41,559 nt of DNA. It comes from Escherichia phage DN1. The DNA lies in the sequence record MF374379.1. One strand, written 5' to 3'. Of this stretch, positions 25,903 through 31,065 are shown piece after piece; positions within the stretch are counted from its first letter, which is position 1; each line of letters begins with the position of its first letter. A program made the position numbers and the translations under genes. Under the pieces are notes generated by a model that saw only the letters and a list, made by a program, of their open reading frames with translations, was not told where the DNA came from and searched no databases.

Positions 25903-27053
25903 GCTGGCAGGATAAAATCAACGCGGCCCTCGATGCGCGGCGTGCTGCCGATGCCCTGCGTCGCCGTTATCCAGTGGCGCAAGGAGCAGGACGCTGGCTG
26001 GTGGCGGACGATCGCCAGTATCTGAACTTTTCCAGTAACGATTATTTAGGTTTAAGCCATCATCCGCAAATTATCCGTGCCTGGAAGCAGAGTGCGGAGC
26101 AATTTGGCGTCGGTAGCGGCGGCTCCGGTCACGTCAGCGGTTATAGCGTGGCACATCAGGCGCTGGAAGAAGAACTGGCCGAGTGGCTGGGCTATTCGCG
26201 GGCACTGCTGTTTATCTCTGGTTTTGCCGCTAATCAGGCGGTCATTGCCGCGATGATGGCGAAAGAGGACCGTATTGTTGCCGACCGGCTTAGCCATGCC
26301 TCATTGCTGGAGGCTGCCAGTTTAAGCCCGTCGCAGCTTCGCCGTTTTGTTCATAACGATGTCACTCATCTGGCGCGACTGCTTGCTTCCCCCTGTCCGG
26401 GGCAGCAAATGGTGGTGACAGAAGGCGTGTTCAGCATGGACGGCGATAGTGCGCCACTGGCGGAAATCCAGCAGGTAACGCAACAGCACAATGGCTGGTT
26501 GATGGTCGATGATGCCCACGGCACGGGCGTTATCGGGGAGCAGGGGCGCGGCAGCTGCTGGCTGCAAAAGGTAAAACCAGAATTGCTGGTAGTGACTTTT
26601 GGCAAAGGATTTGGCGTCAGCGGGGCAGCGGTGCTTTGCTCCAGTACGGTGGCGGATTATCTGCTGCAATTCGCCCGCCACCTTATCTACAGCACCAGTA
26701 TGCCGCCCGCTCAGGCGCAGGCATTACGTGCGTCGCTGGCGGTCATTCGCAGTGATGAGGGTGATGCACGGCGCGAAAAACTGGCGGCACTCATTACGCG
26801 TTTTCGTGCCGGAGTACAGGATTTGCCGTTTACGCTTGCTGATTCATGCAGCGCCATCCAGCCATTGATTGTCGGTGATAACAGCCGTGCGTTACAACTG
26901 GCAGAAAAACTGCGCCAGCAAGGCTGCTGGGTCACGGCGATTCGCCCGCCAACCGTACCCGCTGGTACTGCGCGACTGCGCTTAACGCTAACCGCTGCGC
27001 ATGAAATGCAGGATATCGACCGTCTGCTGGAGGTGCTGCATGGCAACGGTTAA
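25899..27053 (+). CDS. bioF: 8-amino-7-oxononanoate synthase BioF
   Basis: 384 aa, [26 protein letters not shown]; start overlaps the bioB stop. Confidence 0.95.
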
Positions 27054-27795
27054 TAAACAAGCCATTGCAGCGGCATTTGGTCGGGCAGCCGCACACTATG
27101 AGCAACATGCAGATCTACAGCGCCAGAGTGCTGACGCCTTACTGGCAATGCTTCCACAGCGTAAATACACCCACGTACTGGACGCGGGTTGTGGACCTGG
27201 CTGGATGAGCCGCCACTGGCGGGAACGTCACGCGCAGGTGACGGCCTTAGATCTCTCGCCGCCAATGCTTGTTCAGGCACGCCAGAAGGATGCCGCAGAC
27301 CATTATCTGGCGGGAGATATCGAATCCCTGCCGTTAGCGACTGCGACGTTCGATCTTGCATGGAGCAATCTCGCAGTGCAGTGGTGCGGTAATTTATCCA
27401 CGGCACTCCGCGAGCTGTATCGGGTGGTGCGCCCCAAAGGCGTGGTCGCGTTTACCACGCTGGTGCAGGGATCGTTACCCGAACTGCATCAGGCGTGGCA
27501 GGCGGTGGACGAGCGTCCGCATGCTAATCGCTTTTTACCGCCAGATGAAATCGAACAGTCGCTGAACGGCGTGCATTATCAACATCATATTCAGCCCATC
27601 ACGCTGTGGTTTGATGATGCGCTCAGTGCCATGCGTTCGCTGAAAGGCATCGGTGCCACGCATCTTCATGAAGGGCGCGACCCGCGAATATTAACGCGTT
27701 CGCAGTTGCAGCGATTGCAACTGGCCTGGCCGCAACAGCAGGGGCGATATCCTCTGACGTATCATCTTTTTTTGGGAGTGATTGCTCGTGAGTAA
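27040..27795 (+). CDS. bioC: Malonyl-ACP O-methyltransferase BioC
   Basis: Start taken at [27 protein letters not shown] (251 aa); SAM-binding LDAGCGPG motif; ORF track starts 13 codons upstream. Confidence 0.9.
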
Positions 27796-28465
27796 ACGTT
27801 ATTTTGTCACCGGAACGGATACCGAAGTGGGGAAAACTGTCGCCAGTTGTGCACTTTTACAAGCCGCAAAGGCAGCAGGCTACCGGACGGCAGGTTATAA
27901 ACCGGTCGCCTCTGGCAGCGAAAAGACCCCGGAAGGTTTACGCAATAGCGACGCGCTGGCGTTACAGCGCAACAGCAGCCTGCAGCTGGATTACGCAACA
28001 GTAAATCCTTACACCTTCGCAGAACCCACTTCGCCGCACATCATCAGCGCGCAAGAGGGCAGACCGATAGAATCATTGGTAATGAGCGCCGGATTACGCG
28101 CGCTTGAACAACAGGCTGACTGGGTGTTAGTGGAAGGTGCTGGCGGCTGGTTTACGCCGCTTTCTGACACTTTCACTTTTGCAGATTGGGTAACACAGGA
28201 ACAACTGCCGGTGATACTGGTAGTTGGTGTGAAACTCGGCTGTATTAATCACGCGATGTTGACTGCGCAGGCAATACAACACGCCGGACTGACTCTGGCG
28301 GGTTGGGTGGCGAACGATGTTACGCCTCCGGGAAAACGTCACGCTGAATATATGACCACGCTCACCCGCATGATTCCCGCGCCGCTGCTGGGAGAGATCC
28401 CCTGGCTTGCAGAAAATCCAGAAAATGCGGCAACCGGAAAGTACATAAACCTTGCCTTGTTGTAG
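27788..28465 (+). CDS. bioD: Dethiobiotin synthetase BioD (GTG start)
   Basis: (M)[27 protein letters not shown] with P-loop GTDTEVGKT; ORF track uses an upstream TTG at 27782. Confidence 0.9.
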
Positions 28466-28950
28466 CCATTCTGTATTTGGTTAAATTGCGAGCGAGATCG
28501 CGTCTTCGATTGACTGCAATTTAACCAATTAAATTCTAAAATAATCACGAAAAAAATTTTACTTCCGCCTCATGCGGCGAATGTGGGAATTGCCCAGGCG
28601 GCGGGGGATAGGGGCTGGAGACAGTTATCCACTATTCCTGTGGATAACCATGTGTATTAGAGTTAGAAAACACGAGGCAAGCGAGAGAATACGCGGCTTG
28701 CACGCGAATTGGCGTTAAAGACGGCTCAAAGAAATATCTTTTATTTTTTAACTGGTTAGATAAATGCAATGGCAGTCACTGAACAGGCATCTCTTGCCAT
28801 AAAACTGTCATCACTCATCTTGACAAATGTTAAAAAAGCCGTTGCTTTGGGGATAACCCGGTAAGGCCGGAGTTTTATCTCGCCACAGAGTAAATTTTGC
28901 TCATGATTGACAGCGGAGTTTACGCTGTATCAGAAATATTATGGTGATGA

Positions 28951-28970
28951 ACTGTTTTTTTATCCAGTAT
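28951..28970. promoter_or_regulatory. LexA (SOS) box in the uvrB promoter region
   Basis: ACTGTTTTTTTATCCAGTAT has the CTGT-N8-xCAG pattern with an AT-rich centre; lies ~75 bp upstream of the uvrB start. Confidence 0.7.
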
Positions 28971-29043
28971 AATTTGTTGGCATAATTAAGTACGACGAGT
29001 AAAATTACATACCTGCCCGCCCAACTCCTTCAGGTAGCGACTC

Positions 29044-31065
29044 ATGAGTAAACCGTTCAAACTGAATTCCGCTTTTAAACCTTCTGGCGATCAGCCAGAG
29101 GCGATTCGACGTCTCGAAGAGGGGCTGGAAGATGGCCTGGCGCACCAGACGTTACTTGGCGTGACTGGCTCAGGGAAAACCTTCACCATTGCCAATGTCA
29201 TTGCTGACCTTCAGCGCCCAACCATGGTACTTGCGCCCAACAAAACGCTGGCGGCCCAGCTGTATGGCGAAATGAAAGAGTTCTTCCCGGAAAACGCGGT
29301 GGAATATTTCGTTTCCTACTACGACTACTATCAGCCGGAAGCCTATGTACCGAGTTCCGACACTTTCATTGAGAAAGATGCCTCGGTTAACGAACATATT
29401 GAGCAGATGCGTTTGTCCGCCACCAAAGCGATGCTGGAGCGGCGTGATGTGGTTGTGGTGGCGTCTGTTTCCGCGATTTATGGTCTGGGCGATCCTGATT
29501 TATATCTCAAGATGATGCTCCATCTCACGGTCGGTATGATTATCGATCAGCGCGCGATTCTGCGCCGACTGGCGGAGCTGCAATACGCTCGTAATGATCA
29601 AGCATTCCAGCGTGGTACTTTCCGCGTTCGTGGCGAGGTGATAGATATCTTCCCGGCAGAATCGGATGACATTGCACTTCGCGTGGAACTGTTTGACGAG
29701 GAAGTGGAACGATTGTCGTTATTTGACCCGCTGACCGGGCAGATTGTTTCCACTATTCCACGTTTTACCATCTACCCGAAAACGCACTACGTCACACCGC
29801 GCGAGCGCATCGTACAGGCGATGGAGGAGATCAAAGAAGAGCTGGCCGCCAGACGCAAAGTGCTGTTGGAAAACAACAAACTGCTGGAAGAGCAGCGGCT
29901 GACCCAGCGTACCCAGTTTGATCTGGAGATGATGAACGAGCTGGGCTACTGTTCGGGGATTGAAAACTACTCGCGCTTCCTCTCCGGTCGTGGACCGGGT
30001 GAGCCACCGCCGACGCTGTTTGATTACCTGCCTGCCGATGGGCTGCTGGTCGTCGATGAATCTCACGTCACCATTCCACAAATTGGCGGCATGTATCGCG
30101 GTGACCGGGCGCGTAAAGAGACACTGGTGGAGTACGGCTTCCGCCTGCCATCAGCGCTGGATAACCGTCCGCTTAAGTTTGAAGAGTTCGAAGCATTAGC
30201 GCCGCAAACCATCTATGTTTCGGCGACGCCGGGTAATTACGAGCTGGAAAAATCCGGCGGCGATGTGGTGGATCAGGTGGTGCGTCCAACCGGATTGCTT
30301 GACCCGATTATCGAAGTGCGGCCGGTGGCGACACAGGTTGATGATCTTCTTTCGGAGATTCGTCAGCGAGCGGCAATTAACGAACGCGTACTGGTCACCA
30401 CACTGACCAAGCGGATGGCGGAAGATCTTACCGAATATCTCGAAGAACATGGCGAGCGCGTGCGTTATCTTCACTCAGATATCGACACCGTCGAACGTAT
30501 GGAGATTATCCGCGACTTGCGTCTGGGTGAGTTCGACGTGCTGGTAGGGATCAACTTACTGCGCGAAGGTCTGGATATGCCGGAAGTGTCGCTGGTGGCG
30601 ATCCTCGACGCTGACAAAGAAGGCTTCCTGCGTTCCGAACGTTCGTTGATCCAGACCATTGGTCGTGCGGCACGTAACGTTAACGGTAAAGCGATTCTCT
30701 ACGGCGATAAGATCACCCCATCAATGGCGAAAGCGATTGGCGAAACCGAACGTCGCCGTGAGAAACAGCAGAAGTACAACGAGGAACACGGAATTACGCC
30801 GCAAGGCTTGAACAAGAAAGTGGTCGATATCCTGGCGCTGGGGCAGAACATTGCCAAAACCAAAGCGAAGGGCAGAGGAAAATCGCGCCCGATTGTTGAG
30901 CCGGATAATGTGCCGATGGATATGTCGCCTAAAGCGTTGCAGCAGAAAATCCATGAGCTGGAAGGGTTGATGATGCAACACGCGCAGAATCTGGAGTTCG
31001 AAGAAGCGGCGCAAATTCGTGACCAGTTGCATCAGCTGCGTGAGCTGTTTATCGCGGCATCGTAA
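29044..31065 (+). CDS. uvrB: Excinuclease ABC subunit B UvrB
   Basis: 673 aa, [48 protein letters not shown]; helicase motifs and C-terminal UVR domain. Confidence 0.95.

Follow-up and report, generated by a model that had tools for sequence, protein, structure and literature searches.

The occurrence of Chi octamers in Escherichia phage DN1 raises the question of whether these sites aid the growth of a phage that lacks its own recombination functions, or whether they are simply carried within captured chromosomal DNA. Chi stimulates RecBCD- and RecA-dependent exchange on its 5' side, and its presence gives bigger plaques to λ red gam phage. We analyzed the whole stretch of DN1 DNA (41,559 bp, hereafter the window), which contains a complete cos-to-cos genome. 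The reading we favor, to which we assign a probability of about 0.8, is that the λDE3 prophage of E. coli BL21(DE3) gave rise to DN1 as a specialised transducing phage of the λbio type, that three ordinary chromosomal Chi were brought in with the host DNA, and that the top-strand pair of these sites favors growth via RecA and RecBCD.

Genome layout and parentage of DN1

Read from left to right, the DN1 map consists of a λ left arm, attR, E. coli B DNA, and the imm21/nin5 right arm of λDE3. The left cohesive end, GGGCGGCGACCT (1–12, plus strand), is followed by the Nu1/A terminase genes and is 100% identical to λ and DE3 from cos onward; the position of cos and Nu1/A at the left sets the window in the standard λ orientation. 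The right genome end, ...CGACAGGTTACG (41548–41559, plus strand), would provide a double-strand end open to RecBCD once terminase cuts cos. Genes A–J, O, P, Q, S, R and Rz, which supply head, tail, replication and lysis functions, are retained, and the length of the window is 85.7% of that of λ, which is packageable. Within the left arm, an EcoRI-site joint (21226–21231) marks a 4,878-bp b-region deletion (λ 21226 to 26104) that comes from the DE3/D69 vector backbone.

On its left side, the host substitution is bounded by the att core GCTTTTTTATACTAA (attR, POB'; 22846–22860, plus strand); identity to λ stops at 22864, and the DNA beyond this point is collinear with the BL21(DE3) chromosome. 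The substitution (22861–32890, plus strand) carries ybhB, bioA, bioBFCD, uvrB, ybhK, the Moco riboswitch, and the 5' 329 bp of moaA. This host insert of 10,045 bp is 100% identical to and collinear with NC_012971.2, and 99.44% identical to K-12. DN1 thus has the features of a λbio phage: from the att core (POB') rightward, chromosomal DNA stands in place of int and the phage genes that follow it, red (exo, bet) and gam are gone, and the cos-to-cos genome is packageable and still has its genes for morphogenesis, replication and lysis.

A further λbio feature, short homology at the joint, is found where moaA meets the phage 21 pL leader (32886–32890), since the two sequences have in common a 5-bp microhomology, GTGGC, and an 11-bp block, CAATGGTTACC, is present nearby both in the host DNA (32861–32871) and in the deleted start of N. 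An overlap of at least 5 bp has a chance probability of about 0.006, and microhomologies of about 9 bp have been described for λbio joints (PMC11372144). The joint probably formed when moaA and the pL leader recombined illegitimately at short homology, an event that would have swapped int-xis-exo-bet-gam-kil-cIII-ral-N for 10 kb of flanking chromosome. No match to this novel moaA/pL joint was found in IMG/VR, JGI metagenomes, 5,426 complete E. coli genomes, or 50,697 phage records.

Functions lost from the phage

The original prediction described DN1 as red- gam-, and the sequence bears this out. When λ Exo, Bet and Gam were used as queries, tblastn of the window returned only noise (best E = 0.12), and DE3 coordinates 1–11406, which hold exo, bet and gam, are absent. 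The rest of the window was also screened by tblastn for unrecognised homologues of Gam, Red, Orf or Rap, again with only noise at E <= 10, and NinB and NinG were likewise negative by tblastn in the window. The nin5 deletion joint (36355–36364; λ about 40502 to 43297) takes out ninB/orf and ninG/rap, and it allows N-independent late gene expression.

N is also absent; this gene and its ribosome-binding site sit just past the moaA/pL joint and are deleted, while the phage 21 nutL, boxA-L, the pL start (33060) and OL1–3 are retained (32981–33149, minus strand). Since N is lost, growth of the phage must be N-independent, via nin5, and the loss of N may restrict growth more than recombination does.

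In the absence of Gam, RecBCD blocks rolling-circle replication, so that packageable multimers must arise by RecA-RecBCD recombination. Indeed, λ red gam phage require RecA, and their growth is enhanced by Chi in RecBCD+ cells (PMC12315714). The proposal that DN1 both replicates and recombines through host RecBCD and RecA holds for the production of packageable multimers but not for replication, which still depends on phage O and P.

Number and origin of the Chi octamers

An exhaustive search of both strands found three exact copies of GCTGGTGG in the window, in the positions, strands and genes that had been predicted. One lies in ybhB (23242–23249, minus strand; gene at 22951–23427, minus strand), another in bioF (25997–26004, plus strand; gene at 25899–27053, plus strand), at W-L-V-A around codon 33, and the third in uvrB (30591–30598, plus strand; gene at 29044–31065, plus strand), at S-L-V-A around codon 516. 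For the window as a whole this number is not above chance (1.92 expected; a count of 3 is reached in 33 of 100 shuffles), as would be the case if the octamer were a chance 8-mer without biological meaning. However, all three copies are inside the 10-kb host insert, for which 0.32 copies are predicted from dinucleotide shuffles (P = 0.005), a result that rejects chance for the insert; the phage arms contain none (1.41 expected, P = 0.25). The three sites are also conserved in K-12, with counterparts at 807724(−), 810479(+) and 815073(+), the bioF site is kept in a divergent E. coli lineage as well, and over-representation of Chi in E. coli is established (PMC12315714), so we regard a meaningless 8-mer as highly improbable.

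The sites can be traced to the host. Wild-type λ has no Chi, as predicted and as found both by sequence search and in the literature (PMC12315714), and none is present in the DE3 early region, so every Chi in DN1 came with host DNA. A source in the DE3 lacI/lacZ'/T7 gene 1 insert or in other phage DNA was considered and rejected, as no Chi was found there and that insert is deleted in any case. All three octamers are identical to the BL21(DE3) chromosome, which confirms the host derivation that had been proposed. The insert contains 3 Chi against 2.18 expected from the genomic density of E. coli K-12; the match to E. coli DNA indicates normal genome-wide enrichment with no phage-specific signal. 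Because the sites are host chromosome sequence, nothing in them points to selection in the phage.

The same data fit a reading in which Chi that serve break repair in the chromosome are passively carried, without effect, on a molecule that never grew lytically in a RecBCD+ cell, having been packaged only once, belonged to a defective particle, or come from tandem duplication or assembly. Complete identity of the sites to the host, their genomic density, the deletion of N, and a joint unmatched in IMG/VR, JGI metagenomes, E. coli genomes and phage records are all compatible with such a molecule, and a tandem duplication could give the same joint. This explanation is nevertheless unlikely, given that the genome is exact from cos to cos and of packageable length, that no head, tail, replication, Q or lysis gene has been lost, that nin5 allows N-independent growth, and that the effect of Chi is well documented in λ red gam and λbio phages (PMC12315714; PMC11372144; PMC3375238).

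Orientation and flanking sequence of Chi

A top-strand 5'-GCTGGTGG-3' is in the active orientation for RecBCD that enters at the right end (PMC12315714; PMC5041463), and in λ it is the right end that is free because terminase occludes the left one (PMC12315714). The enzyme has to approach from the 3' side of the octamer, which is the case for the sites at 25997(+) and 30591(+) and not for that at 23242(−). By this rule, which is taken from the literature, the two plus-strand Chi are predicted to be active, as originally proposed, and the ybhB Chi is predicted to be inactive for RecBCD coming from the right cos end, being able to act only on a rightward-moving enzyme. The uvrB Chi is 10,961 bp from the right end and would be met first; the bioF Chi is 15,555 bp from this end.

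Sequence on the 3' side alters the strength of Chi activity, not the identity of Chi, with A or G favored at nucleotides 4–7 3' of the octamer. At the bioF Chi these nucleotides are ACGA, which is purine-rich and mostly favored. At the uvrB Chi they are TCCT, all pyrimidine and disfavored, and therefore the bioF Chi may matter more. Thus, the nearest active site, 11 kb from the point of entry and with a pyrimidine flank, may have low activity.

The active orientation of two of the three sites would follow from geometry. Chromosomal Chi have an orientation bias of about 3:1; the left-to-right map of the prophage would run clockwise on the right replichore, where ~3/4 of Chi would be on the top strand.

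Proposed role of Chi in growth

Established λ biology suggests how the captured sites would act. Terminase would cut cos and remain on the left end, RecBCD would load on the free right end, and the enzyme would unwind leftward via the lysis, Q, O/P and immunity regions. Reading Chi from its 3' side, RecBCD would encounter the uvrB site about 11 kb in and, if this one were missed, the bioF site at about 15.6 kb. At Chi, RecBCD would nick the DNA, its nuclease would be attenuated, and RecA would be loaded on the 3' tail. The action of Chi is to its left, so exchange would be raised in bio, attR, the b region and J. The recombination partners for packageable multimers would be theta-replicated circles, and the dimers or concatemers that result would give DN1 bigger bursts and plaques than a red- gam- deletion phage devoid of Chi. 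The ybhB Chi faces the wrong way and would be silent for cos-initiated events.

The benefit of Chi could instead lie mainly in protection, with attenuation of the RecBCD nuclease allowing linear or rolling-circle DNA to survive and exchange being secondary, in which case the ybhB Chi could help too, by acting on RecBCD that moves rightward from other ends. The Chi of λbio has been described as shielding DNA from RecBCD degradation (PMC11372144), and plaques and bursts became larger with a Chi-like sequence for which no hot-spot activity could be detected (PMC5041463). On the other hand, the failure of λ red gam on recA hosts indicates that recombination itself is required (PMC12315714), and the need for a given orientation with respect to cos indicates that events begin at cos (PMC12315714; PMC5041463). 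We consider a primarily protective role possible but doubtful; it overlaps with growth through RecA-RecBCD exchange and does not exclude it.

Comparison with known phages

The original prediction placed DN1 in the historical context of recombination hot spots on λbio phages. This history is real: λbio substitutions are reportedly the subject of the work of McMilin, Stahl and Stahl in 1974. Phages of this kind are scored as Spi- when they plate on P2 lysogens and as Fec- when they fail on recA hosts. Aberrantly excised λbio phages owe their full Spi- phenotype to Chi in bio (PMC11372144; PMC3375238).

DN1 resembles the λbio Spi- phages of the Ikeda λ Spi- assay in that host DNA runs from the att core through bio and replaces int-xis-red-gam, the joint has short homology, and Chi is supplied by the bio DNA; by analogy, its growth would also depend on RecA and RecBCD. 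The parents differ, as DN1 came from an int-disrupted imm21 nin5 DE3 prophage in E. coli B and the λbio Spi- phages from λ cI857 in K-12. In addition, the DN1 substitution is unusually long, extending over 10 kb as far as moaA and including a second active-orientation Chi in uvrB, and, unlike those phages, DN1 has had N removed too.

A second comparison is provided by the λ red gam chi+ mutants (chi+A, B, C, D, chi+76 and chi+L), which also have a top-strand octamer with a dependence on cos orientation, and which form large plaques on RecBCD+ hosts, as would be expected of DN1. There, Chi was created within phage DNA by point mutation or by engineering, whereas in DN1 it was ready-made in host DNA and is present as two active-orientation copies in tandem with different flanking contexts.

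Lambdoid phages of the LLS class ('no Rec module, high Chi') share with DN1 the lack of a recognisable Rec module and the use of host RecBCD via top-strand Chi read from the right end (PMC12315714). Members of this class have 8–25 active-orientation Chi that evolved in phage genes and are clustered near the right end (PMC12315714). DN1 has only two, in captured host DNA and 11–15.6 kb from the right end, short of the at least eight near that end that define the class, so it would work like the LLS phages without being a member. The record ON470605.1 was rejected as an analogue, since this partial, P22-like genome, in which bio DNA adjoins a tail-fibre gene, is probably a prophage with host flank and no relative of λbio.

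A probable transducing derivative of the DE3 prophage

That Chi capture is the reason λbio phages grow well is already known, so the Chi finding opens no new question; what the analysis adds here is that the classical account of a red/gam-less λbio phage growing well via host-supplied, correctly oriented Chi can be re-derived from raw sequence. This is of use in annotating the DN1 genome and in predicting its Spi-, Fec- and Chi-dependent plaque size phenotypes.

The phage itself is more unusual than its octamers, as it is a λbio derivative of a prophage that is supposedly non-excisable. With its int gene disrupted, DE3 is considered incapable of excision, and the DN1 sequence suggests that this 'locked-in' prophage can, through illegitimate recombination at short homologies, yield transducing genomes that are packageable, a point of modest practical relevance to contamination by phage and to the stability of strains used for protein expression. 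We tentatively suggest, at less than even odds, that DN1 is a viable, N-deleted bio-uvrB-moaA' transducing derivative of DE3 and that Chi capture acts as a filter on which red- gam- aberrant excisants can be recovered. Expression strains of the BL21(DE3) type would then be able to release infectious phage that carry host genes. The arrangement of homology at the joint as two patches, the 11-mer and the 5-mer with an offset of 3 nt, could also inform how such joints form.

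Chi octamers and their host origin

A search of both strands of the window for Chi, the E. coli RecBCD recombination hotspot octamer (5'-GCTGGTGG-3'), identified exactly three copies, at the positions and on the strands that had been predicted: one on the minus strand at 23242-23249 and two on the plus strand at 25997-26004 and 30591-30598. Transfer of the BL21(DE3) annotation places these sites in ybhB (22951-23427, −), bioF (25899-27053, +) and uvrB (29044-31065, +), the genes originally named. The window-wide count is unremarkable (3 versus 1.92 expected; at least 3 in 33 of 100 shuffles). 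All three sites lie inside the host insert, 10,045 bp of E. coli B DNA extending from the att core to a truncated moaA, where the same count compares with a mean of 0.32 in 2,000 dinucleotide shuffles (P = 0.005) and with 2.18 predicted from the K-12 genomic density of 1,008 sites per 4.64 Mb. Therefore, the Chi signal is the usual E. coli enrichment, imported with the host segment. The 31.5 kb of phage arms contain no Chi versus 1.41 expected, a depletion that is not significant (P = 0.25). Matches to seven of the eight Chi positions are also abundant across the window (87 versus 41 expected, a value reached in none of 100 shuffles), with a strand bias of 59 plus versus 25 minus.

No Chi was found in the wild-type λ sequence, as previously reported (PMC12315714), in coordinates 1-20500 of DE3 (the imm21 nin5 prophage of E. 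coli BL21(DE3)), or in the left arm of the window, so all three sites are purely host-derived, as the original prediction held. The host insert is 99.44% identical to K-12, and each site is conserved in MG1655, at 807724 (−), 810479 (+) and 815073 (+). The ybhB and bioF sites also occur in the bio segment of Escherichia phage vB_EcoP-720R6 (ON470605.1), which derives from a divergent E. coli (96.6% identity) and ends short of the uvrB Chi position; two 7/8 matches in the host insert, GCTGGTAG (26585-26592) and GCTGGTCG (30045-30052), are full Chi in that record. It is a P22-like 'partial genome' record with four Chi, of which three correspond in strand to the window plus strand, and in it ybhB-bioABFCD-uvrB' (6001-13924) directly adjoins a tail-fibre gene. 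The record probably represents either a prophage from the λ att region, deposited together with flanking host DNA, or a transducing fragment of the bio type.

Genome structure and lost phage functions

The λ left cohesive end GGGCGGCGACCT at the start of the window and ...CGACAGGTTACG at its end establish that it is a mature cos-to-cos genome. Its 41,559 bp correspond to 85.7% of λ, which is within λ packaging limits. Window 1-21231 matches λ 1-21231, and window 21226-22864 matches λ 26104-27742, defining a 4,878-bp EcoRI-to-EcoRI deletion of the b region with its joint at 21226-21231; the att core follows at 22846-22860. Over positions 19000-32890 the window matches the BL21(DE3) chromosome collinearly at 100% identity; this stretch contains the b region, attR, ybhB, bioA, bioBFCD, uvrB, ybhK, the Moco riboswitch and the first 329 bp of moaA. 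From 32886 to 41559, the window is 100% identical to 11407-20080 of the λDE3 record, in the order phage-21 immunity region, O, P, nin5 deletion, Q, S, R, Rz and cos. With its joint at about 36355-36364, at a short ACGAACCTG repeat, the nin5 deletion of about 2.8 kb removed ninB/orf and ninG/rap; both it and the b-region EcoRI deletion are vector-type scars of the DE3/D69 backbone.

Since the joint falls at DE3 11407, just outside the N ribosome-binding site, the interval from int through N is entirely gone: int, with its lacI-lacUV5-T7 RNA polymerase insert, xis, exo, bet, gam, kil, cIII, ral, and N with its ribosome-binding site. Retained from phage 21 at 32886-33149 are nutL, boxA-L, pL and OL1-3. 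In tblastn searches of the window, λ Exo, Bet, Gam, NinB/Orf and NinG/Rap and phage-21 N gave only noise (best E = 0.12), which upholds the description of this phage as red- gam-. Judged from its gene content, the phage has neither a recombination function of its own nor a RecBCD inhibitor and, as N is lost, its lytic growth would have to be N-independent and dependent on nin5.

Orientation and predicted action of Chi

The terminase genes at the left place the window in standard λ orientation. Once packaging has begun, terminase occludes the left end and leaves the right one accessible to RecBCD; for enzyme entering there, top-strand 5'-GCTGGTGG-3' is the active orientation, and Chi in the opposite orientation is inactive (PMC12315714). 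Therefore, the copies at 25997 and 30591 have the active orientation, approached from their 3' side from cosR as predicted, and that at 23242 has the inactive one; neither a missing octamer nor inactive orientation of both plus-strand copies was found. The window plus strand is the chromosome plus strand, the bio region is on the clockwise replichore, and chromosomal Chi is ~3-fold more frequent in the orientation favouring fork repair, so we infer that import of top-strand Chi is a tendency of any λbio substitution, not a peculiarity of the window phage.

It is known that λ red gam does not grow on recA hosts, because recombination is unavailable, that it grows on hosts lacking the RecBCD nuclease, because rolling-circle replication supplies concatemers, and that in RecBCD+ cells its growth is enhanced by Chi (PMC12315714). 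In the window phage, RecBCD would load at 41559 and move leftward for ~11 kb, across the lysis, Q, O/P and immunity regions and then the moaA'-ybhK DNA, to meet the uvrB Chi first and, if this were missed (Chi recognition frequency is below unity), the bioF Chi 4.6 kb further on. At Chi, RecBCD would nick the DNA, load RecA and promote exchange to the left, yielding packageable multimers. Alternatively, the benefit could come mainly from attenuation of RecBCD degradation by Chi rather than from stimulation of crossovers, an explanation that partly overlaps with exchange at Chi. The bases at 3' nucleotides 4-7 influence Chi activity in vitro as well as in cells, purines favourably and pyrimidines unfavourably (PMC5041463); given flanks of TCCT for uvrB and ACGA for bioF, the first-met uvrB site is predicted to be the weaker.

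Parentage and relation to known systems

At the moaA|pL21 joint, host and phage overlap by 5 bp (GTGGC, 32886-32890; chance about 0.006), and an 11-bp block, CAATGGTTACC, is common to host 32861-32871 and the deleted phage-21 N start (DE3 11379-11389), 14 nt left of the joint in the host and 17 nt left in the phage, a 3-nt offset relative to the crossover. This two-patch short homology is a signature of illegitimate recombination and fits the way in which λbio phages have been described to form, at microhomologies of about 9 bp (PMC11372144). The joint was not found among 5,426 complete E. coli genomes, 50,697 phage records, IMG/VR or JGI metagenomes. The int gene of DE3 is disrupted and the prophage is thought unable to excise (PMC10250240), and yet the window represents a λbio-type derivative of DE3 running from cos to cos. 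The joint could have arisen by loop-out excision or through a tandem duplication that was packaged from cos to cos in situ, both of which give the same sequence.

The window phage represents the classical, already known λbio/Spi⁻ situation; hot-spot activity of bio substitutions was reportedly described by McMilin, Stahl and Stahl in 1974. It works like the recently described LLS class of lambdoid phages, which lack a Rec module and are dense in Chi, but with only two active sites it lies outside that class, which is defined by at least eight active Chi clustered near the right end. Less ordinary is the DE3 parentage of a λbio-type derivative.

Other cargo includes a complete molybdenum-cofactor riboswitch (32430-32574) and the 5' third of moaA; from pL, moaA is now read in antisense and ybhK in sense. 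In addition, uvrB is intact, so this phage is uvrB- as well as bio-transducing.
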